The notes under the pieces: model-generated
What the model saw: only the letters and a program-made list of their open reading frames with translations
What the model was told of the DNA's origin: nothing
Database searches by the model: none
Program-made: the position numbers and the translations under genes
From: Promethearchaeota archaeon
GTDB taxonomy: Archaea; Asgardarchaeota; Lokiarchaeia; Sigyniarchaeales; SOKP01
Assembly (NCBI GenBank): GCA_016839765.1
Contig: JAEOTP010000019.1
Location: forward strand, 1 to 22,702
Direction of reading: 5' to 3'
DNA: 22,702 nucleotides
Shown: positions 5,108 to 21,473 of the stretch, in pieces
How positions within the stretch are numbered: position 1 is the first letter of the stretch
How the letters are laid out: every line of letters begins with the position of its first letter

Positions 5108-6073
5108 ATGATTGAGATTATAATAGCTATTTTTATTCTGATTGGAGGATTAGGATTAATTGTTATCTGTAGCATACAAGCAGTTAAACATTCGGCTATC
5201 CTTGCTGCAGCATTAGGTGTATCTCCATTAATAATTGGGGTTGCTTTAGTTTCAATCGGGACAGATGTCGCAGAAATCTTTAATTCAATCGTATCTTGTG
5301 CATTAGGTCATGGAGATATTGATGTGGGAGATAGTGTAGGTTCAGATTTAACTCAACTTACATTAGTATTTGGTATATTACCATTAGTTTCTGGTATTTT
5401 TTATGTTCACAGAAAAGATATCATAATTTTAGGGGCATGTGAGGTTTTATCATTAATATTAATATTTACGGTTGTTGAGAAAGGATATTTTACAAGATTA
5501 GATGCAATACTTATGATTGGTTGTTTAGGGATATATATTTGGCTAATATATAATGCTAATAAAGAGAGTATTTTGCAAAGAGTTGAGAAGATTGAAAAAA
5601 TAAAAGCCCCAAGAGCTAAAAAATTTCATTTATTAATTGCAGTCTTAGCTTTTGGCGGAGTGACTATCAGTTCCATTATGATAGTCGAATCAGTTATTAC
5701 TATTTCTGAAGGATTGAATGTTCCTGAGTATATTATTAGCTTCTTTGGAGTGTCTCTGGGAACTTCTTTACCCGAATTAGCCGTCGACATCAATGCTCTA
5801 AGATTAAAACATCATGAGATAGCTATTGGTGATATAATAGGTTCCTGCATAGTAGATTCCACCCTCTCAATCGGCATAGGTCAAGCTCTTTTCCCGCAAG
5901 CAGTAACTGCCAGTCTTGCAGTTCCTACAGTTTTGTATACTCTAGTCGCCAGTTTTATTGTTATAACTATCGTCGCGGTTAGAAAAAAAGTGGATAAAAA
6001 AGCAGGAATAGTGTTTATTGCATTATATTTCCTTTCTTATGTATTCCTTTTCTCCTTCTGGATGCGTGGTTGA
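5108..6073 (+). CDS. Na+/Ca2+ (cation/Ca2+) antiporter, YrbG/NCX_Mj-like
   Basis: Two alpha-repeats (SIGTDVAE...GDSVGS and SLGTSLPE...GDIIGS) and about 10 TM helices. Confidence 0.9.
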   Translation: MIEIIIAIFILIGGLGLIVICSIQAVKHSAILAAALGVSPLIIGVALVSIGTDVAEIFNSIVSCALGHGDIDVGDSVGSDLTQLTLVFGILPLVSGIFYVHRKDIIILGACEVLSLILIFTVVEKGYFTRLDAILMIGCLGIYIWLIYNANKESILQRVEKIEKIKAPRAKKFHLLIAVLAFGGVTISSIMIVESVITISEGLNVPEYIISFFGVSLGTSLPELAVDINALRLKHHEIAIGDIIGSCIVDSTLSIGIGQALFPQAVTASLAVPTVLYTLVASFIVITIVAVRKKVDKKAGIVFIALYFLSYVFLFSFWMRG

Positions 6074-6137
6074 TAATCTTAGTAATTGCCTAATAATTAC
6101 TTTTTTAATTAATATTTTTATGTTTATTAGTATTGGT

Positions 6138-6485
6138 TCATTCAGGCATGTAAAATTTACATAAACTACACTGCTTCGCTTTTAATCGTCTATCTGGGCC
6201 TAAAATAATATATTTACTTTGCATTAATCCTCCGCATTTAGGACAATTTTTAGCAAAATTCTCTTTAATAGAATTTAATACTATTTGTATACTTTTTTCT
6301 AACTTGAGCAGCTCATTTGCATTTTCAATTATTTTTTTTGCAGAAATTAGACCGATTCCCTTAATCCAAGCTAATTCTTCAGGTTTTGCTTTTGAAATAT
6401 CCTCAATAGATTTAACTCCTGCTTTATTCAAATTTACTGCAGCAATTGGACCAATACCCCTTATTCGCTCAAGTTCGTTAGACAT
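6138..6485 (-). CDS. Helix-hairpin-helix DNA-binding domain protein with C-terminal Zn ribbon
   Basis: Two HhH motifs (LERIRGIGPIAA, LAWIKGIGLISAKKII), as in the RadA/Rad51 N-terminal domain, plus CPKC...CSLC. Confidence 0.8.
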   Translation of the reverse strand: MSNELERIRGIGPIAAVNLNKAGVKSIEDISKAKPEELAWIKGIGLISAKKIIENANELLKLEKSIQIVLNSIKENFAKNCPKCGGLMQSKYIILGPDRRLKAKQCSLCKFYMPE

Positions 6486-6632
6486 AATGGTGAGTTTGAG
6501 ATTATTTTCTTATTAGATTTTCTATTAAAGAATTTTTAAGTTTAGAAACCCAAATATGTTGATATTATATATTATAATATCAATACAGAAAAAAAAAATT
6601 TTAGATTTAAAAAATTCTTTTCCTTTTAAAAA

Positions 6633-7343
6633 TTATTTTTCTATTTGACGCCCCACGCCAAAGTACATTAAATATGCACCTGCTAATCCTAAGATCACCC
6701 CTATTCCGCTTATAATCATTCTAAATGTTGCCTCATCAAGAGTATTCGATACAAAAATACCGTACATAAAGATAATTAGCGTACACAATCCAAATATAAA
6801 AAATTTCCACTTTTTCTTTAAATTTGCATCTTCAAATTTTCTAAATATTTGAAATGATAAATAGAGTAGAGGTATAATTAGCACGCTTTCAACTATTAAT
6901 ACATATATAAAGAATTCAATGCTCCAAACTGGAGACAAGGTAACATTCAGAGTAACTCCAGGTGTAGGAGTGAATAAGAAGATTATCATGCAAAACATAG
7001 CTATACCATAGACAATAAGAATAATTAATTGCTTACCGGTTGTAATCACCTTTTCGGACTTCAAAAGTATTAAATTGAACACAAGAAGGAATATTGGGGA
7101 ATAAAATATGCAGAAATTAGTAATAAAGTTTAAAATAAGAATGGTAGGTATATCAGTAAGAAACACATAAATAAAATTTATAAAGGAGCCAATTATAGCA
7201 GATATATAAAACCCTGAGAAGATTATATTCAATCGCTTTGTGTCTCGCTTAAGAATCTTAATTGCTAAAAAAAGAAAGAAGGCAAAAACCAATCCCTGGG
7301 CAACGAACACTGTGAGAATTCTTGTTGTATTTAATTCTACCAT
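6633..7343 (-). CDS. Stand-alone ~7-TM membrane protein (resembles N-terminal 7TM sensor domains)
   Basis: 236 aa, about seven hydrophobic segments with short basic loops (KILKRD, LKKKWKFF); GTGA 7 nt upstream of the ATG. Confidence 0.7.
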   Translation of the reverse strand: MVELNTTRILTVFVAQGLVFAFFLFLAIKILKRDTKRLNIIFSGFYISAIIGSFINFIYVFLTDIPTILILNFITNFCIFYSPIFLLVFNLILLKSEKVITTGKQLIILIVYGIAMFCMIIFLFTPTPGVTLNVTLSPVWSIEFFIYVLIVESVLIIPLLYLSFQIFRKFEDANLKKKWKFFIFGLCTLIIFMYGIFVSNTLDEATFRMIISGIGVILGLAGAYLMYFGVGRQIEK

Positions 7344-7486
7344 AACTTAATCACATTCTTTGAATTTTTATTTGAATTTTGTATTTAATATTGTACTCTA
7401 TTAATTTAAATGCATTTACTAGTTGCTATTAATTTAAATACTATTAAATGAACAGAATTTTTAATATAAAAATCAACTTATTATAT

Positions 7487-7754
7487 TTATAGCTGTTTTG
7501 GGACACCATAATATACAAAGTACAGAGATATTAGTGTAGACAATGAAATTATTGACCAGATTAACCTAAATATAGGATTTGCTAATGTATTTGAAAAGGA
7601 AGGTCCATAATATAGAAAAAAAGAAGCAAATATCCTAATCAAAAAGTATTTCCACTTCTTTTTGAGCTCTTTTTAAGTCTTTTGCTTCTCTTTTTAAGAT
7701 CTTATAAACCATAAATAAGAAAAATAAGTCGAAAAATCCTTGTAAAATCCCCAA
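7487..7754 (-). pseudogene. Internally deleted, frameshifted paralog of the adjacent 7TM gene
   Basis: Manual translation. Frame A: LGILQGFFDLFFLFMVYKILKREAKDL (cf. VAQGLVFAFFLFLAIKILKRDTKRL). Other frame: ELKKKWKYFLIRIFASFFLYYGPSFSNTLANPIFRLIWSIISLSTLISLYFVYYGVPKQL* (cf. NLKKKWKFFIFG...YGIFVSNTLDEATFRMII...YLMYFGVGRQIEK*). Junction near 7673. Confidence 0.9.
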
Positions 7755-7840
7755 ACCTCTATTGAAAAGCTATCGACAAATTTATGTTTTTCTAGTTAAA
7801 AAACTTTAAAAAAAGATAAAATTAAAAAATGTTATACTAT

Positions 7841-8035
7841 CTATTGTTCACGCCATTCAATTCCACATTTACCGCACCTATACTTCTTACCGTAAACTCT
7901 TGGATAATCACTGATAATGTTTGTTTTATCAACAGATTCATGGATCATATTTTTATTCTCTTCACCGCAAGATGGACACTTTCTCCGTCCATCAGTTTTT
8001 TCAATTGTTAATAATTTATTTGAACCTTCTCCCAT
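7841..8035 (-). CDS. Small Zn-ribbon protein
   Basis: CPSC...CGKC pairs in 64 aa; GGAGTTGA RBS-like motif upstream. Confidence 0.8.
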   Translation of the reverse strand: MGEGSNKLLTIEKTDGRRKCPSCGEENKNMIHESVDKTNIISDYPRVYGKKYRCGKCGIEWREQ

Positions 8036-8887: not shown

Positions 8888-9826
8888 ATGTTTGTAATAT
8901 ATTTCTTTTTAATGTTAATGGTAATTATTTGGAGCTTTTCATTTATAATAGTGGATATTTTAATAATAAATGAGTTTATACCTCCTCTCTCTATAGTGCT
9001 ATTTAGGTTTATAGTTGCCTCAATTGGGTTTCTTTTAATTGATTTGTATATTAAACTGAAAAAGAATAAAATTCACAATAATACTCCAAAAATTAAAGCA
9101 ACAAAACGCTATTCGAGAAGAGAATGGATTTATTTAGTCTTGGCAAGTTTTTTTGGAGTTTCTTTTTTCTTTTTTGCTCAGTATTCTGCTATCAATTTAA
9201 TTGGGCCTTCTCTCCCTGCATTATTTGTGTGCCTTTTAGCACCTGTCATGATATCTATATTAGCCCTTATTTTTTTTAATGAAAAGCTAAATAAAATAAA
9301 GATAATTGGTTTCATAATTGCAACAATTGGCGGATTTTTGTTAGTAACAGGAGGGAATTTACAAAAATTTACTCCAAAGTCCCCTAATTTTTTAGGATAT
9401 ATGTTTGCACTTATGACTCCGATATTTTGGGCAATTTATTCTACAATAACTAAAAAATTGGTTAAAAGGAGTTCTAGTAATCAGATAAATAAATATATAT
9501 CATATATTGCAGTTATTGAGCTATTATTTCTGGTATTAATTAATAATGAATTCAAAATTTTTGTCCAAAACATTTTAAATCCGATTTTATTTCTAAGTTC
9601 AATATATCTAGGGGTTGGATGTTATATAATAGGCTATTACATCTGGCAATATTCTCAAAATAAACTAAAATCGGCAAGGGTGGCTTCTTTCTTATATATT
9701 GAACCCTTTCTTACCCTAATGTTTTCAATATTATTACAGAGAAGCGATGAGGTAGCAATTTGGAACATTTTAGGAGGGATTATTGTTTTAATAGCAGTGT
9801 TAATTATTAATTATGAGAGAGAGTGA
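8888..9826 (+). CDS. EamA/DMT-family transporter
   Basis: IWSFSF, PPLS-x-x-x-FRF, LAPVMISILALIFFNEKL, WAIYS, ASFLYIEP; two 5-TM halves. Confidence 0.92.
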   Translation: MFVIYFFLMLMVIIWSFSFIIVDILIINEFIPPLSIVLFRFIVASIGFLLIDLYIKLKKNKIHNNTPKIKATKRYSRREWIYLVLASFFGVSFFFFAQYSAINLIGPSLPALFVCLLAPVMISILALIFFNEKLNKIKIIGFIIATIGGFLLVTGGNLQKFTPKSPNFLGYMFALMTPIFWAIYSTITKKLVKRSSSNQINKYISYIAVIELLFLVLINNEFKIFVQNILNPILFLSSIYLGVGCYIIGYYIWQYSQNKLKSARVASFLYIEPFLTLMFSILLQRSDEVAIWNILGGIIVLIAVLIINYERE

Positions 9827-10020: not shown

Positions 10021-10593
10021 TTATTCAATTATTACATCTACATAAAAAACATATGGTCCAAAGTAAAATGTTTCTTCATACCCACTTGGTGGGAAATCTG
10101 GTATAGAGATAGTGAGCCCAACTGCAACGGATACAGTATAGATTCCATTCGAAACTTCAATTTCATCAGGCCCTAATAAAACATTTACATCCTGTGTTAA
10201 CATATTCATTAGATCTTCAAGTGTAAATGCCAGTTCATAAAGTTGATCATTGGGAGTTGTTATATTAATATAAATTGTAAGATCCACATATTGAGTAAAC
10301 AATTGTAATGCTGTGTTTCCAGCATTCTTCGCTTCTCCTCCATCAAAAAGATATTCATAAGGACTTACTTCAACATGTTTTACATTAACATTAGGAGTAG
10401 TAAAACCATCAAATTGCATGGTATTATAAGAATCACTTGAAGAACTAGAAAAAGGTGTCATTAAACCAAATCCTGTACCTACAGATAATGCATCAACACT
10501 AAGACCATACATGAATACCGGGATTAAAGCAACTAATGTACCTACAGTAAGTATAGAAACAACTACTATGACGATTATATTTTTTCTTTCCAT
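10021..10593 (-). CDS. Hypothetical N-terminally anchored or secreted acidic protein
   Basis: MERKN followed by a hydrophobic helix, a Ser-rich linker, then a beta-rich, acidic, Lys/Arg-poor domain. Confidence 0.65.
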   Translation of the reverse strand: MERKNIIVIVVVSILTVGTLVALIPVFMYGLSVDALSVGTGFGLMTPFSSSSSDSYNTMQFDGFTTPNVNVKHVEVSPYEYLFDGGEAKNAGNTALQLFTQYVDLTIYINITTPNDQLYELAFTLEDLMNMLTQDVNVLLGPDEIEVSNGIYTVSVAVGLTISIPDFPPSGYEETFYFGPYVFYVDVIIE

Positions 10594-10749: not shown

Positions 10750-12174
10750 TTATATATTGGCAGACGTAATTTGATCAAGTTGTTTTGCAAGAATTTCATC
10801 AATAGGTTTGATTGGGGACAATTTTTCTAATTTTAAAGTTTGCTCTATTGCTCTTTTTCTGATAGATTTTGATCCTGAGTCTTTCCATGCATCTCGAGAT
10901 AATCTATCTATAATTGGGCTTGGGAGAAATAATTCTTTTTTAAATAATTTCAAAGTTAAGGGATGGGATAATAATTCTTGTTTTTTATCATAAGCTTTTA
11001 GAATATTTGAAGCAAATGGAGCTCCAAAATTTTCAATACCTTTTAAGAATCTTTTTACCATTCCTATTATTTCATTATCGATTAATAATTTTTCAATACT
11101 CTGTGTAGATTCAAAATCTATCATTCCAGGTCCAGAAACCATATTAATCCCTGCTAAACCTGCTAATAGTGCTCCCATTCCTGCTTCAAATCCTGCTTGA
11201 GCATCAGGTACTTTTGAGTCACTTAAACTCATGTAGGCATGAGTCGGTAGTTTTAAAAATTTACCCATCTCAACATCCCCTATATTTATCATCATTGTCT
11301 CTATAGCACCCATAGGAGTCGTACCCCGCCTCATATCTAAAACAGCTGGAGATCCTCCCCATATCACTGGTGCTCCTTTTTTAGTTAATTGAGCTATCAC
11401 TACTCCTGCAAGAGATTCAGCACAATGTTGGGTTATAGAACCTATTAGAGTAATTGGAGCACTTGCACCAGCTAAAGGCATAGATACAAATTCTGAGGGA
11501 ATCATACTATTAGCAGCGTCAATAAGAGACTGAGTTGTCAAATCAGACCATTTTAGAGGAGGACTTGGGCAAGCGTCAAATACAGCTAAGGGTTTTCTAG
11601 CTAAATCCTCCTCTGACAATCTGCATGCTAGAAGTAATTCGCGCATAATTTTAAAACTTTCCTTCCGAAATGTTCCAGTAATAACTGGTTTATAACAATT
11701 AGATAATGCAAGATATAGACGATGCCAGTCTTGAGCCTCTTTTGGCACATCTTGATAAACAATCGCAGTACTTTGAGCGTCAATAAATTGTAATTGTTCT
11801 ACAATTTTTGAAAAATGTATAAAATCTTTAGATAAAGCCTCTCTAATTTCACCAGTTTTTTCATCTAGAATAAAAATAGCGGCGGATCCTGGATCAAAGT
11901 GAACATTATCTTTCGTTAATGATAGAAATTCTTTTCCCTCTCTATCATATAGCTTTATCTCATTAGGTATTGATTCTAAACATTTATCTACCAAATCTGA
12001 CGGAATAAAATAGCGAGAGTTCCTTTCATCAATACCATGTTGCTTGAATATTTTAATGGCTTCCTTGTTTTCCAGAAATATTCCTTGATTTTCAAGAATA
12101 TCCATTGCCTCGTTAAAGACTTTAATCTTATGTTCTTCATCTAATAGTTGGATTTTTGGCTTTAAAATCGTCAT
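10750..12174 (-). CDS. Trimethylamine methyltransferase (MttB/MtgB) superfamily protein, non-pyrrolysine
   Basis: SPPL, GASAPITLIGSITQHCAESLAGVVIAQLTKKGAPVIWG, DMRRG, SDSKVPDAQAGFE, LLIDNEI. No in-frame amber codon; Leu precedes SDSK where Pyl sits in methanogen MttB. Confidence 0.92.
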   Translation of the reverse strand: MTILKPKIQLLDEEHKIKVFNEAMDILENQGIFLENKEAIKIFKQHGIDERNSRYFIPSDLVDKCLESIPNEIKLYDREGKEFLSLTKDNVHFDPGSAAIFILDEKTGEIREALSKDFIHFSKIVEQLQFIDAQSTAIVYQDVPKEAQDWHRLYLALSNCYKPVITGTFRKESFKIMRELLLACRLSEEDLARKPLAVFDACPSPPLKWSDLTTQSLIDAANSMIPSEFVSMPLAGASAPITLIGSITQHCAESLAGVVIAQLTKKGAPVIWGGSPAVLDMRRGTTPMGAIETMMINIGDVEMGKFLKLPTHAYMSLSDSKVPDAQAGFEAGMGALLAGLAGINMVSGPGMIDFESTQSIEKLLIDNEIIGMVKRFLKGIENFGAPFASNILKAYDKKQELLSHPLTLKLFKKELFLPSPIIDRLSRDAWKDSGSKSIRKRAIEQTLKLEKLSPIKPIDEILAKQLDQITSANI

Positions 12175-12197
12175 ATCTTAATCACTTCTAATTTCTT

Positions 12198-13079
12198 TTA
12201 AACTAAGGCATCTAAACCCTTTTTTATCTCTTTTATAGTTTTTGGAGACGTTCCACAGCATCCTCCCACAATTTTTGCTCCTAATTTAACAATCTGTAAA
12301 ATGTCTTTAGCAAAGTCTTGCTCTGATTGATCATAATGAGTGATTCCGCCCTGTGTTAGTCTTGGTTTTCCTGCATTTGGTTTAATCGATATTGGTTTAT
12401 TAGTAATATTTTTCATTTCTTTAATTAATTCAATCATCTCTTTAGAACCTAAAGTACAGTTTCCTCCAATTATTTCAACATTCTCATTTTCTACTTTTTC
12501 TATGCAGTCTTTTAAGGAGTTTCCCATGATTGTGAAAAATCCACGTTTAGTCTTTTTATACGTCATGGAGCTAATTATAGGCTTTTTTGAGACTTCTTTT
12601 ACGGCTTGGATGGCAGCAACCATTTCTTCAATATCAGAAATGGTTTCTATGTGCCATAGGTCAATTCCAGGTTCTAAATATTTAATTTGTTTTAAATAAC
12701 TTGAATACCATTGTTCATATGTCGCTTTTCCTATTGGGGGTTTATATTCTCCTGATGGGCCAATATCCCCCACTATTAAATGATTAGGTGGGCAAACTTT
12801 TTTTAAATTTTCTATAGCCTTTTCGTTAATTTCTTTAATACGATCTTCAAGTTTATATTTTTGCAGATTCATATAACTAGAACCAAAAGTATTCGTTTGA
12901 CACATATCTGAACCAGCCTCATAGTAAGCTTTATGAATTTCTGTGACTATTTCGGATTGTTCCATATTAAGAATATCTGGTAATTTGCCTGGCTTGATTC
13001 CGCGTTTAAATATTTCAGTACCCATTCCACCATCAAATAAAATTATTTTCGAATCATCTTTTAGCCATTCTTTAAACAA
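12198..13079 (-). CDS. Stand-alone homocysteine S-methyltransferase domain (MetH N-terminal / BHMT-like); start TTG 13079 or ATT 13085
   Basis: LFDGGMGT, TNTFG, GDIGPSG, IET, GGNC, PNAGKP and GGCCGT (three Zn-binding Cys). Confidence 0.93.
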   Translation of the reverse strand: MFKEWLKDDSKIILFDGGMGTEIFKRGIKPGKLPDILNMEQSEIVTEIHKAYYEAGSDMCQTNTFGSSYMNLQKYKLEDRIKEINEKAIENLKKVCPPNHLIVGDIGPSGEYKPPIGKATYEQWYSSYLKQIKYLEPGIDLWHIETISDIEEMVAAIQAVKEVSKKPIISSMTYKKTKRGFFTIMGNSLKDCIEKVENENVEIIGGNCTLGSKEMIELIKEMKNITNKPISIKPNAGKPRLTQGGITHYDQSEQDFAKDILQIVKLGAKIVGGCCGTSPKTIKEIKKGLDALV

Positions 13080-13113
13080 AGTAATACTTTAATCAACTCC
13101 AATTTTTATTCTA

Positions 13114-13758
13114 TTAATCCATTAACTTTTTAATTAATTTAACTGCTTCTATGGCATTATCGGCATAGCCATCAGCTTGACATTCATTTACCCAATTTTG
13201 AGTAACTGGAGCACCACCTAATATCACTTTAAACTTATCTCGTATCCCCTTATCTTGCAAAATTTCAATAAGTTTCTTTTGACCAATCATTGTGGTGGTT
13301 AAAAGAGCTGAAACTCCAATTATGTTAGCATTTTTTTCGAGAGCAGTATTAATAATTTTTTCCGCAGAAACATCAGCACCTAAATCATATACTTCAAAAC
13401 CATTCGCACTTAACATAGTTGCTACAATTGTCTTACCAATTGAATGTATATCTCCCTCTATTGTAGCAATTACAACTTTTCCTGACATAATATCTTCTTT
13501 ATTTGCTTTTAAAAATGGTAATAGAATTTCCATTGATTCTTGAACAATATTTCCTCCAAGCATCAATTCTGGTAAGAAAAACTCTCCTTCTTCCCATAAT
13601 TCGCCTATACGACGAATACCCGCACCAAATCCCTTTTCAACTACGTCTAATAAATTCATATTTTCTTCTATTGCCTTTTTTGCAAAACTAATTGCTTTTT
13701 CTCTGTCTAAACTGACAATAGCTTCTGAAATTTCCTTATAAAAACTCTCTTGGGACAC
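13114..13758 (-). CDS. Methyltransferase cognate corrinoid protein (MttC/MtbC-like; cap + B12-binding domain)
   Basis: FFLPELM cap motif, EGDIHSIGK (DxHxxG), SALLTTTM, LGGAPV; GTG start with upstream GGAG. Confidence 0.95.
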   Translation of the reverse strand: MSQESFYKEISEAIVSLDREKAISFAKKAIEENMNLLDVVEKGFGAGIRRIGELWEEGEFFLPELMLGGNIVQESMEILLPFLKANKEDIMSGKVVIATIEGDIHSIGKTIVATMLSANGFEVYDLGADVSAEKIINTALEKNANIIGVSALLTTTMIGQKKLIEILQDKGIRDKFKVILGGAPVTQNWVNECQADGYADNAIEAVKLIKKLMD

Positions 13759-13955
13759 TCAAATCTCTCCTAGAAGTTAGAAATGTGTTTACTTTTTTAT
13801 TCAAATGAACATCTTATTAAAATTTCCAAGGTTTAAAAAATATAACTTATATCTCCCTTAATCTATAATATTGAAAATGCTATTATTTATCTATTATTAT
13901 TAGATTAACTAAAAAGAATATATATCTCTACACTATATGAAATTTAAAAAAATAT

Positions 13956-14480
13956 TTGAGAAATAAATTCGATAATAAAGGTGAAAATAAAATTCCAAGA
14001 CGTTATTATGCTAAATCTAAGAAAACATATGCGAAAGATCAATCTTTTGAACAGGATCAAGTAGGAGAGGAGAAAGAGCGATATTTAATCAGTATAGAGT
14101 TGATGAGTTTAAAGACACTTAAAGATTATGACATATTTGGCTGGCGAGGCGAATTCTATTTTAAAGTAGATGGGCCTAAGGTGTTCAAAGCTAGATGGCC
14201 AAATAAGGGGACTATCAAATTGCAAAGAAATCAAGAATTTACCTCAAAAGCAGATATGTCGCTATGGTCTCAATTTAAAACCGTTCGGGTAGATAAACCT
14301 GCAGTAGAAAACATAAAAGTAATTTTAAGGGAACGCGATCATTTGAAAAAAGATCATACTGTGTGTGAATATGAATACGAAATCATGTTACCATCAAAAA
14401 CTGAATACGTAGTTTTACAAGATGAAAAAGAGAAAACAAAAGCTAAGCTTCGGATTCAAGCAACCAGAACCAGATATTAA
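13956..14480 (+). CDS. Hypothetical protein, possible C2-like beta-sandwich (start TTG 13956 or ATT 13992)
   Basis: Alternating beta-strand pattern; DYDIFGWRGEFYFKV and VILRERDHLKKDHTV resemble C2 Ca-binding loops 1 and 3. Confidence 0.55.
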   Translation: MRNKFDNKGENKIPRRYYAKSKKTYAKDQSFEQDQVGEEKERYLISIELMSLKTLKDYDIFGWRGEFYFKVDGPKVFKARWPNKGTIKLQRNQEFTSKADMSLWSQFKTVRVDKPAVENIKVILRERDHLKKDHTVCEYEYEIMLPSKTEYVVLQDEKEKTKAKLRIQATRTRY

Positions 14481-19250: not shown

Positions 19251-20273
19251 TTAAAGTATCTCAGACCATTTTCCACATCTCGATCCCCATCTAGCAATAA
19301 CCTCGTCTTTCTCAACCAGAGAGCAAGTTATTATCTCACAGTTGTTAGGACAATCCCCGCAGTTAAATGCTTTCGTCTCGAATTCAATATCCGCAACTTT
19401 AAGTCCTCGAAATGTTGTTTCCTGCTCATGTTCTTGATAATAATCCCTTACTAATATTGCCATTCCTAAAGCACCCATAAGAACATTATATTTCGGAACT
19501 AAGACTTTACAACCAAGATGCCTTTCAAATGCTTGAACAATTCCTTTATTATATGAGACACCTCCCTGAAAAACAACAGGCTCATCCAAATCTTTTCCTT
19601 TAGACAAGTTATTCAAATAATTCCGGACAAGGGAATCACATAAGCCAGCAATAATATCCTCTTTGGAATAACCAGCATTTTGTTTATGTATCATATCTGA
19701 TTCTGCAAAGACAGTGCACCTCCCTGCGATACTAGCTCGATTCTTTGATTTCACAGCATAACTACCAAACTCCTCAATAGGAATTCCAAGTCTTCTTGCT
19801 TGATGATCCAAAAATGAACCTGTTCCAGCAGCACAAACAGAATTCATAGCAAAATCTACAATAATTCCATCTCTAAGTATAATGATCTTTGAGTCTTGAC
19901 CTCCGATTTCTAAAATTGTTCTTACATCAGGATACATAGATTGTGTTGCAACCGCGTGAGCAATAATCTCAGTTTTGGCAAGATCTCCTCCTACTACCGC
20001 CTTGGTTAAATATCTTGCCGATCCTGTGGTGCCACAACAACGTATTGCATAAGCTTTCAATTCTGGATTATCTTCTATATTATTTCGTAATTCTGCCATA
20101 CCTACTTTAGCGGAATCAATGGGAGAACCTTCATTACGTAAGAAAACACTCGTTAATACTTTTCCATTTGTGTCCATTAGAACAAATTTACAACTCACAC
20201 TCCCGATATCAATTCCTAAGAATGCATCCTTCTTTTCTACTTCTACCTTTACTTTATCAGAAACTTGAACCAT
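19251..20273 (-). CDS. ATP-dependent [4Fe-4S] CoA-substrate enzyme activase (HgdC/BadFG, ASKHA fold) with extra C-terminal Cys cluster; PlsA activase-like
   Basis: LGIDIGSVSCK, TTGSAR, EIGGQDSK, MNSVCAAGTGSFLD, CTVFAESD, FQGGV, then FNCGDCPNNC...GSRC. Confidence 0.93.
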   Translation of the reverse strand: MVQVSDKVKVEVEKKDAFLGIDIGSVSCKFVLMDTNGKVLTSVFLRNEGSPIDSAKVGMAELRNNIEDNPELKAYAIRCCGTTGSARYLTKAVVGGDLAKTEIIAHAVATQSMYPDVRTILEIGGQDSKIIILRDGIIVDFAMNSVCAAGTGSFLDHQARRLGIPIEEFGSYAVKSKNRASIAGRCTVFAESDMIHKQNAGYSKEDIIAGLCDSLVRNYLNNLSKGKDLDEPVVFQGGVSYNKGIVQAFERHLGCKVLVPKYNVLMGALGMAILVRDYYQEHEQETTFRGLKVADIEFETKAFNCGDCPNNCEIITCSLVEKDEVIARWGSRCGKWSEIL

Positions 20274-20285
20274 ATCATCACTTTT

Positions 20286-21473
20286 TTATTGATTTTGAAT
20301 CATTTGAAAGCATTCTTTATAAAAATTACTTCCATATTCATGATAAATATCATCTAAATCTTGTTTTAAATAATCTCTTTTGTGGGCAAGTTTATGCTCA
20401 CGACGAGAATACATGAGATCTACAAATGCTTCTAAGCGCGTTCGAAAGCCTTCAAATGCCATTGCCTCATCAAATGAAAAGAAAATAACTGGTAAATCAT
20501 AAACCTTCTTGAGTTTATTGGTTATGATGGTACGAGCTGTGACCTCTGGCATGCAGGTAAACGGATAAATATGTGCCATCCCATCGAAACCTGCGCGAGC
20601 CCTATCAATATATTCGCCCAAAACCCATATGCATTCCCCTCCAATATCCATTGGGACATACGGTTTTGCCAGATGTTCTAGCCATTTTCTGTGATAATTC
20701 AAGTGAAACTTGTGTACAACCCAATCCCATAAGCTTAAATTTTGATGAATTTCTACTTGCATTTCACCTAATTTGCGTCTTATATCTAAATTAACGTATG
20801 GTTCTAAAGAAATGTGAATTTCACCAGATACTGCAACTTTTAATGGATTTCGAGTTTTGTCAACGTCAATTTTGGTAAAATCTTCTTTAATGACCTTTTT
20901 AAAATTCCTTAAGCCTTTGAGGGTATTTGTCTCATCAAGTTTTAATAATAATTTTTTTACAACTCTTGTAGTATCACCTTGGTTGCGTTCATATGCGCGA
21001 TATAACCCTTCTGCAGTTTGTATATCATTCAATAATTTCGCTTTCTTCACAAAAAATATGACAGCTTTTACAAATTTTGAATAAATGAAAGGATCACTTC
21101 TCCCAGTAACTTGTTGAAGAGTTTTGACCCAATGAAATTCCAGAAGATCCGCCTGGTCCAAGGGAATCATGACAAAATCCTTATATCCCATGTCTCTTAA
21201 GATTCGCTCTTGGACACTCGCGTAGAATCCAAAGCGACAAGGTCCACAGTCAATAGCCATGACTAATACATCGGCTCCCTTATCTAATGCATTTTTGAAA
21301 TCTCCAATCGTTGCCTTAAATGGAAAACAGACAAATTCAGGGCTATATTTGACACCAATCTTAACGGCTTCTCGATTAGTCGGATCGGGCAATACAACGT
21401 CTAAATCCAAAGCAGTGAATAAAGTTTTAAATGCAACCCAGTTGGGACCCATATTGGGAAAACTTATAAGCAT
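20286..21473 (-). CDS. 2-hydroxyacyl-CoA dehydratase-like Fe-S reductase subunit (PlsR-like partner of the activase)
   Basis: ISFPNMG, GVKYSPEFVCFPFK, CGPCRFGFY, GEI, GGE, PFTCMPE, FDE...GFRTRLEAFVDL. Confidence 0.85.
   Translation of the reverse strand: MLISFPNMGPNWVAFKTLFTALDLDVVLPDPTNREAVKIGVKYSPEFVCFPFKATIGDFKNALDKGADVLVMAIDCGPCRFGFYASVQERILRDMGYKDFVMIPLDQADLLEFHWVKTLQQVTGRSDPFIYSKFVKAVIFFVKKAKLLNDIQTAEGLYRAYERNQGDTTRVVKKLLLKLDETNTLKGLRNFKKVIKEDFTKIDVDKTRNPLKVAVSGEIHISLEPYVNLDIRRKLGEMQVEIHQNLSLWDWVVHKFHLNYHRKWLEHLAKPYVPMDIGGECIWVLGEYIDRARAGFDGMAHIYPFTCMPEVTARTIITNKLKKVYDLPVIFFSFDEAMAFEGFRTRLEAFVDLMYSRREHKLAHKRDYLKQDLDDIYHEYGSNFYKECFQMIQNQ

Follow-up and report, generated by a model that had tools for sequence, protein, structure and literature searches.

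Contig JAEOTP010000019.1 of the Promethearchaeota archaeon assembly GCA_016839765.1 carries, on the reverse strand between positions 10,750 and 13,758, a run of three genes encoding respectively a corrinoid protein, a homocysteine S-methyltransferase and an MttB-superfamily protein; the whole stretch of 22,702 nucleotides that was analysed is referred to here as the window. The reading that we favour, and to which we would assign a probability of about two in three, is that these genes specify a three-protein, cobamide-dependent split methionine synthase free of any pterin module, in which the corrinoid protein is loaded by an enzyme of an MttB subfamily and is reactivated in trans by RamA. 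According to this proposal the MttB-family enzyme, acting as donor:corrinoid methyltransferase (MT1), would demethylate some small methylated compound and place the methyl on the Co(I) form of the corrinoid protein, and a zinc enzyme of MetH type (MT2) would pass it from CH3-Co(III) to homocysteine, so that methionine is formed. Corrinoid protein that had become oxidised to Co(II) would probably be re-reduced by the single RamA-type activase of the genome, which is proposed for this role because the S-adenosylmethionine (SAM)-dependent activation gene of sister lineages is missing here.

The gene for the corrinoid protein (13114..13758, reverse strand; 214 aa) begins with GTG, 7 nt upstream of which lies a GGAGAG motif. 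The product, the predicted methyl carrier, is of the methylamine-type MttC/MtmC kind: it matches the Pfam domains B12-binding_2 (66.9 bits) and B12-binding (100.7 bits), and the family model TIGR02370 (213.2 bits). Its DxHxxG motif reads GDIHSIGK, and both this and the SxL...GG motif are unchanged across 17 homologues. The best solved match is 1Y80, a predicted cobalamin-binding protein (156.6 bits); the scores against MttC and MtmC are 155 and 154 bits, compared with 104 bits against the cobalamin domain of MetH. After a spacer of 34 nt follows the gene for the stand-alone homocysteine methyltransferase (12198..13079, reverse strand; 293 aa, TTG start), the predicted acceptor module. It belongs to the S-methyl_trans family PF02574 (225.6 bits), is collinear with the homocysteine module of Thermotoga maritima MetH (1Q7M, 180 bits), and retains the zinc cysteines in the motifs NC208 and GGC274C275G, C208, C274 and C275 being invariant among homologues. 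The third gene, 23 nt further on (10750..12174, reverse strand; 474 aa, ATG start), encodes the presumed MT1, a non-pyrrolysine member of the MttB superfamily (MTTB, PF06253, 239.6 bits) whose score of 366.7 bits against TIGR02369 falls under the 525-bit cut-off for pyrrolysine-type MttB. Its matches in the Protein Data Bank are to MttB itself (7XCL, 195.5 bits) and to MtgB (2QNE, 173.4 bits), at about 30% identity in each case. Since the corrinoid protein is nearer to MttC and MtmC than to the cobalamin domain of MetH, the cassette is a chimera, with a methylotroph-type front end and a MetH-type back end. Domain searches detected no gene for a pterin-binding, MtbA-like or RamA protein among the genes of the window.

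The assembly (3.32 Mb in 96 contigs, 95.9% complete) is a Lokiarchaeia-type Asgard metagenome-assembled genome (MAG), and the nearest homologues of its homocysteine methyltransferase are found in Promethearchaeota and in Hermod-, Loki-, Heimdall-, Thor- and Hodarchaeota. Profile searches of the genome identified the PF02574 gene in the window as the only one, and gave no match to PF01717 (MetE) or, using PF02965, to a MetH activation domain. Searches for an activation protein by tblastn of the genome, with no convincing match at E 1e-3, and with a hidden Markov model built from six cluster-linked activation proteins were equally negative. Two proteins match PF00809, and were considered as hidden pterin methyltransferases; both are biosynthetic enzymes of the dihydropteroate synthase (DHPS) type, one of them DHPS (TIGR01496, 200.1 bits against a cut-off of 162.6) and the other an archaeal DHPS-like protein (TIGR00284), which rules this out and leaves the genome with no recognised pterin methyltransferase of the MetH/AcsE type. 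A gene for S-adenosylhomocysteine hydrolase is present, so that homocysteine arises from the use of SAM and must be remethylated. The single RamA-type activase (a RACo_C_ter gene, 655 aa) is encoded on contig C23, and two genes of the MtrH/MtgA family are located on contigs C95 (19107-20009) and C19 (5973-6857), neither of them adjoining a corrinoid protein gene. The C95 copy scores 221 bits against the MtgA model and 251 bits against the MtrH family model.

A preliminary description of this DNA, made from the sequence of the window, had recognised the three genes as one run, and their coordinates, domains and 34- and 23-nt spacing are all borne out here. Its statement that pterin-dependent, MtbA-like and RamA partners are missing holds for the window but not for the genome as a whole, which has the two MtrH/MtgA-family genes and the RamA gene just mentioned. 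It had also proposed a relay from donor through corrinoid protein to homocysteine that dispenses with the pterin module of MetH, and had asked whether the triad is conserved and whether the genome lacks MetE and full-length MetH. Neither of these methionine synthases was found in the 95.9%-complete genome, and the sole PF02574 gene, the lack of a MetE or activation-domain match and the conserved operon all argue for such a relay, with methyl groups apparently flowing towards homocysteine.

Conservation of the triad was assessed in an even sample of 151 Asgard genomes, whose families are coded here f1, f5, f22 and so on. PF02574 is present in 37 of these. Among the PF02574-bearing genomes of families f1 and f22, an MttB orthologue lies directly beside the PF02574 gene in 24 of 25, the lone exception being a locus cut by the end of its contig, and the order is fixed as corrinoid protein, homocysteine methyltransferase, MttB. 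That this order is kept in 24 of the 25 sampled genomes of two Asgard families argues that the operon arrangement is not due to chance. The same order recurs on contigs labelled Loki-, Thor- and Odinarchaeota and in named Promethearchaeota MAGs. Within its Asgard family, the homocysteine methyltransferase shows 62-96% identity, and its gene invariably either separates the corrinoid and MttB genes or adjoins them, across gaps of 20-35 nt. One such contig (L106, DATKTW010000084.1) is labelled 'Candidatus Nanopelagicaceae bacterium', although it bears the Loki-type triad together with a Loki-specific 162-aa gene and an EamA gene, their identities being 63-78%; probably this is an Asgard contig assigned to the wrong bin.

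In families f5 and f27 the cassette includes a fourth gene, encoding a protein of about 220 aa with a MetH-type activation domain (PF02965, 32-38 bits), which sits between the homocysteine methyltransferase and MttB genes, sometimes with an extra insertion of about 4 kb; in two f22 genomes the activation gene is instead downstream of MttB. On three metagenome contigs of 47-70% GC (two of them 69-70%), more distant members of the MttB group (39-44% identity) belong to this four-gene cluster too, and named bacterial MAGs with related homocysteine methyltransferases, assigned to Thermoanaerobaculia and Krumholzibacteriota, also have the four-gene cluster. A short KSB1 contig shows the homocysteine methyltransferase and MttB genes as an adjacent pair. 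In Aminicenantales and Marinimicrobia MAGs a ramA gene lies within the cluster, replacing the activation gene. The two reactivation systems are distributed in complementary fashion across the Asgard families: RamA (PF14574) is present in 24/25 genomes of f1, 5/7 of f22, 0/13 of f5 and 0/1 of f27, and the activation domain in 0/25, 2/7, 8/13 and 1/1 respectively, a pattern rather than a statistic, given that few lineages are involved. Together with the occurrence of RamA inside bacterial clusters, this distribution supports the view that loss of the SAM-type activation gene gave rise to the three-gene Loki form, which depends on RamA in trans.

In a phylogenetic tree constructed with FastTree, which has an arbitrary root and weak deep branches and does not include the characterised enzymes MtcB, MtpB, MtyB and MthB, all MttB proteins linked to a homocysteine methyltransferase fall into a single clade with 99% local (SH-like) support. 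This clade comprises 60 rows, among them 10 triads, 7 four-gene clusters and one orphan, and in it the MttB of the window is joined by those of four-gene clusters on metagenome contigs. The neighbours examined for clade members in Asgard families f5 and f27 and on three further contigs are a corrinoid protein, an activation-like gene and a homocysteine methyltransferase. A pocket signature emerges from an alignment of 147 relatives, consisting of Pro95-Gly-Ser97-Ala, His(or Gln)312-x-Tyr314, Leu/Met317, Phe354-Glu355 and Gln358, which is constant across the orthologous group whatever acceptor gene adjoins. The position of pyrrolysine in MttB (X334 of 7XCL) aligns with Leu317 of the window enzyme, and MtgB also has Leu there; the homologous codon 317 (11224..11226, reverse strand) reads TTA, and there is no in-frame UAG at this site. 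An Rfam match to PYLIS_3 (11127-11226, reverse strand; 47.1 bits, above the gathering score) begins exactly at codon 317. With the UAG missing, this match most likely reflects homology of the coding sequence rather than a functional PYLIS.

Relatives of the MttB enzyme bearing the same signature are found wired to other acceptors. In genus g29 of the Freyarchaeia, the corrinoid-MttB pair lies about 60 nt or less from a convergent gene for core-MetE (PRK00957, 244 bits) in 6 of 6 sampled genomes, one of which is the closed genome of Candidatus Freyarchaeum deiterrae. The g29 MttB is 48-51% identical to that of the window, has the same pocket signature, and is placed just outside the 99% clade. 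In the publication on the Freyarchaeum genome, MttB/MtbC is taken for a quaternary-amine system that supplies the Wood-Ljungdahl pathway, and there is no mention of methionine (PMC11291895). In short, in Freyarchaeia a non-homologous homocysteine methylase stands in place of the MetH-type one beside a closely related MT1-carrier pair. Within family f1, a MetE-like gene of 340 aa is present in six of the seven genomes that have no PF02574, compared with 3 of the 19 that have it, and the seventh PF02574-less genome has a truncated MttB orthologue at the start of a contig. Both comparisons agree with the triad's being the methionine synthase.

The same signature occurs also, just outside the clade, beside MtrH and a corrinoid protein (loci L069, in family f15, and L094) and beside an MtaA-like enzyme of the URO-D type (L091). 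In family f12 (L064-L066) the genes for a CysK-like pyridoxal phosphate (PLP) enzyme, a corrinoid protein and MttB make up an operon, at a distance of 2 kb from which lies an MtaA-like gene. The f12 and L091 lineages carry neither PF02574 nor PF01717, and the MtaA-like enzyme is conceivably a methylase of a third kind, acting on homocysteine (or another thiol). In the genome under study, an MtaA-like URO-D methyltransferase (378 aa) is encoded on contig C40 (30401-32189, reverse strand), where its gene overlaps a 236-aa corrinoid protein gene; no MT1 gene is nearby. No recognisable methionine synthase was detected in families f7, f12 and f13. In one f7 genome (G134) the genes for methionyl-tRNA synthetase, a 207-aa leucine-rich repeat protein and MttB follow one another with overlapping stops and starts (L067, 6591-10812, reverse strand), which suggests that the three form one operon; the pocket of this MttB is related but partly diverged, and the arrangement is seen in that genome only. 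In family f15, genes for core-MetE (304 aa) and MtrH (308 aa) overlap by 4 nt behind a gene of 309 aa (L104, contig C11 of G029, 5178-7945, reverse strand), which has the look of a corrinoid route to methionine fed by a pterin, and is a further modular combination. Such swaps of acceptor are the pattern expected of a substrate-specific MT1 that delivers methyl groups either to methionine or to the one-carbon pool.

This modularity keeps in play the strongest of the alternatives, which is nonetheless considerably less probable than the split synthase fed by MttB: that the corrinoid protein and the homocysteine methyltransferase are the methionine synthase, but receive their housekeeping methyl from methyl-tetrahydromethanopterin (or methyl-tetrahydrofolate) through a stand-alone enzyme of the MtrH/MtgA family, that of C95 or C19, with MttB an auxiliary or catabolic entry to a bidirectional hub, as in the MtgBCDE system of Ruegeria. 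The genome does hold two genes of the MtrH family; the MtrH proteins of L069 and L094, which neighbour a corrinoid protein and an MttB of the same signature, are 36-37% identical to the C95 copy, which might load or unload the corrinoid protein of the triad; core-MetE and MtrH overlap in the f15 operon; and in Ruegeria the pterin module is encoded away from the corrinoid protein (PMC12478193). Against this, no MtrH gene occurs in or near any of the examined cassettes that contain a homocysteine methyltransferase, whereas MttB is always present, and the genome's own MtrH genes are not beside corrinoid genes.

A second, more improbable alternative keeps the split synthase but makes the donor glycine betaine or another acidic quaternary amine such as carnitine, proline betaine or gamma-butyrobetaine, much as the preliminary description had suggested. 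Every characterised non-pyrrolysine member of the MttB superfamily uses quaternary amines (PMC13080624), and the Leu at the pyrrolysine position is shared with MtgB. The residues of MtgB that bind glycine betaine, Y97, R312, H348 and F356, are established by mutagenesis and a ligand-bound structure; R312 is reported to be kept in every superfamily member whose function is known, all of them acting on acidic quaternary amines (PMC13080624). An alignment to 2QNE, with the numbering offset verified on R312, H348 and F356, places Ser97, His312, a gap after Ser347, and Glu355 respectively at these four positions of the window enzyme. Judged by this alignment, the glycine-betaine pocket has been replaced, and the loss of Arg312 makes an acidic quaternary amine an improbable donor, so that the betaine-like donor favoured by the preliminary description is not supported. 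His (or Gln) is found at position 312 throughout the clade, whereas two further MttB paralogues encoded on contig C96 together with a corrinoid protein of their own keep Arg, on which account those paralogues are better candidates for betaine-type substrates. Nor was a betaine transporter of the BCCT or ProX type seen in the examined cassettes. At the C96 locus (L086, 60879-65980), one MttB paralogue is followed after 3 nt by a gene for a PLP enzyme of Cys/Met metabolism (426 aa, gamma-synthase/gamma-lyase family), and the corrinoid protein and the other paralogue are encoded divergently from this pair.

It is very unlikely that the homocysteine methyltransferase is instead a B12-independent enzyme resembling MmuM or betaine-homocysteine methyltransferase (BHMT), using S-methylmethionine, SAM or betaine and merely neighbouring an unrelated MttB-corrinoid demethylation pair. 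PF02574 does cover B12-independent enzymes too, and there are weaker matches to the NCBIfam models for BHMT (184.8 bits) and MmuM (118.2 bits); direct comparison, however, gives only 55 bits to BHMT and 50 bits to an MmuM-type enzyme, against the 180 bits to the MetH module. The constant placement of the gene at a short distance (20-35 nt) from the corrinoid and MttB genes also argues otherwise, as does the company kept by its relatives, which travel with a MetH-type activation gene or with RamA, an association that is sensible only for a corrinoid. The remaining alternative, left by the preliminary description, of a reverse or catabolic direction in which methionine or the methionine cycle would act as methyl carrier for methylotrophic energy metabolism, is the least likely of all, having nothing specific in its favour beyond the catabolic appearance of same-signature MttB proteins wired elsewhere to MtrH or MtaA-like acceptors, and facing the strongly exergonic methyl transfer from methylcobalamin to homocysteine thiolate in MetH, the status of the homocysteine methyltransferase gene as the genome's only candidate for a housekeeping role, and a within-family identity of 62-96%, which fits a biosynthetic enzyme.

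Several considerations nevertheless count against an MttB-fed split methionine synthase. At 95.9% completeness the absence of particular genes is not proven, and the sampled genomes are mutually related, so the counts overstate their independence. MttB relatives with the same signature occur without any homocysteine methyltransferase in families f7, f12, f13 and f15, and the enzyme is therefore not dedicated to methionine everywhere. The MtrH/MtgA-family genes on C95 and C19 could load the same corrinoid protein from methyl-tetrahydromethanopterin. It is also awkward that a housekeeping methionine synthase should depend on a methyl donor that is possibly external, and the functions assigned to members of the cluster are predictions from sequence. 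A physical partnership of the three proteins is presumed; a structure prediction for the homocysteine methyltransferase in complex with the corrinoid protein lent it weak support, with a score of 0.52, the best of three controls scoring 0.00, with runs agreeing in at least 65% of contacts and a pLDDT (predicted local distance difference test) value of at least 79 for the partner. Among 80 solved complexes, 58 reach the mark that it passes, as against 2 of 110 mismatched pairs, and the band up to 0.60 holds 7 of those 80 complexes and both of the passing mismatches. This prediction is not counted as evidence, because structures of MetH exist and the pass may reflect memory or likeness.

It is tempting to go further, and to suppose that this MttB subfamily, with a conserved pocket signature of its own and no Arg312, uses a kind of donor new to the superfamily, which might be an endogenous metabolite rather than a quaternary amine from the environment, and that the cassette represents a separate class of methionine synthase, on which most Lokiarchaeia depend as their only housekeeping source of methionine. 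We advance this extension tentatively, as a possibility that may well prove wrong; were it true, the growth of most Lokiarchaeia would be tied to a cobamide and to a donor of a novel kind.

The genes adjoining the triad gave no clear guide to its substrate or reactivation. An EamA/DMT transporter gene (8888-9826, forward strand) is convergent to the triad here and in many f1 genomes, and another EamA gene follows the four-gene cluster in L092. EamA was rejected as a clue to the substrate, since the window and L092 proteins share no BLAST match and families f5 and f22 are without it. A 190-aa open reading frame downstream of MttB (10021..10593) was considered as a degenerate activation domain and likewise set aside: it has no match to Pfam or to the activation profile, and bears an N-terminal membrane anchor. 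Upstream of the triad, an AT-rich intergenic region of 197 nt (13759..13955), presumed to contain the operon promoter, is shared with a divergent gene (13956-14480, forward strand) for a protein of 174 aa (probably 162 aa). This protein belongs to no Pfam family and to a hypothetical family of the Atlas found mostly in Promethearchaeota; it is 78-86% identical in the Loki-type contigs L027, L029, L105 and L106, being more conserved than the methionine-synthase genes, and adjoins the triad in some contigs, not all. Further away (19251-21473, reverse strand) genes for a BcrAD/BadFG-type ATPase (340 aa) and a DUF2229/HGD-D-like protein (395 aa) adjoin each other, together making up an 'activase' pair of the type associated with 2-hydroxyacyl-CoA dehydratases; a BcrAD/BadFG-type ATPase is also found near the triad in L027.

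Should the proposed MttB-loaded synthase be correct, most Loki-type Asgard archaea would make methionine, and recycle the homocysteine derived from SAM, only by way of a cobamide protein loaded by MttB. This would bear on how these hard-to-grow relatives of eukaryotes might be fed (with cobamide, methionine or methyl donors), on the consumption of methylated compounds in sediments, and on the evolution of modular B12-dependent methyl-transfer systems, in which one MttB pocket signature is here combined with four acceptors (MetH-type, core-MetE, MtrH and MtaA-like) and reactivation alternates between the SAM-type domain and RamA.

The idea that methionine may be synthesised by a corrinoid/MttB system is not new, having already been published for bacteria: Williams et al. 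(2022) described the same cluster in Ca. Electryoneota and diverse bacteria, and put forward the hypothesis that its role is to make methionine, the methyl coming from an unknown donor (PMC9324843). The likeness extends to the three core genes, the uncharacterised non-pyrrolysine MttB clade and the proposed function. The cassette described here differs in that it is archaeal, has three genes with no activation gene anywhere in the genome, and contains the only recognisable methionine synthase, whereas the MAGs of that study also have full-length MetH (PMC9324843). Genetic support for a related arrangement comes from Mausz et al. (2025), who found that MtgC of Ruegeria serves both MtgB and methionine synthesis (PMC12478193). 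The MtgBCDE system of Ruegeria pomeroyi and the split MetH of Phaeobacter inhibens resemble the window cassette in consisting of separate proteins, in having a corrinoid protein shared by an MttB-family MT1 and a homocysteine module, and in having a RamA-type activase encoded elsewhere. In Ruegeria, though, the pterin module MtgD is required for methionine, the genes are scattered and MtgB is a glycine betaine enzyme (PMC12478193), while the window cassette is a single operon, no methyltransferase of PF00809 type was found in its genome, which has the two MtrH/MtgA-family genes elsewhere, and the betaine pocket is absent.

Comparison with canonical MetH (EC 2.1.1.13) reveals the same zinc-cysteine homocysteine module and the same combination of a B12 cap with a Rossmann domain and a His-on DxHxxG motif, but the cassette is without the pterin-binding (PF00809) and SAM-dependent activation (PF02965) modules, and its corrinoid protein is the closer to those of methylamine metabolism. 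With MtgB/MtgC/MtgA of Desulfitobacterium hafniense and MttB/MttC of Methanosarcina it shares a TIM-barrel MT1 of the MttB superfamily and an adjacent cognate corrinoid protein, with Leu as in MtgB; MT2, however, is here a homocysteine methyltransferase in place of MtgA, which serves tetrahydrofolate, or MtbA, which serves coenzyme M. The core methionine synthases MesA-MesC (Price et al., 2021) likewise form methionine from a methyl-corrinoid protein and bind no methyl-pterin, but their acceptor belongs to PF01717 and not PF02574, and the donors proposed for them are MtrA or CoFeSP, not a protein loaded by MttB (PMC7857596). Neither MttB nor Asgard archaea are mentioned in that paper or in the GapMind paper of 2026. 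What is new here is the comparison of MttB pockets, the swapping of acceptor modules around one type of MT1 pocket, and the way in which RamA and the activation domain complement each other in their distribution. The cassette is best regarded, as far as its sequence indicates, as a variant both of the cluster published for bacteria and of the split systems that have experimental support in roseobacters, from which it is set apart by being archaeal, by having no activation gene and by supplying the sole recognisable methionine synthase.

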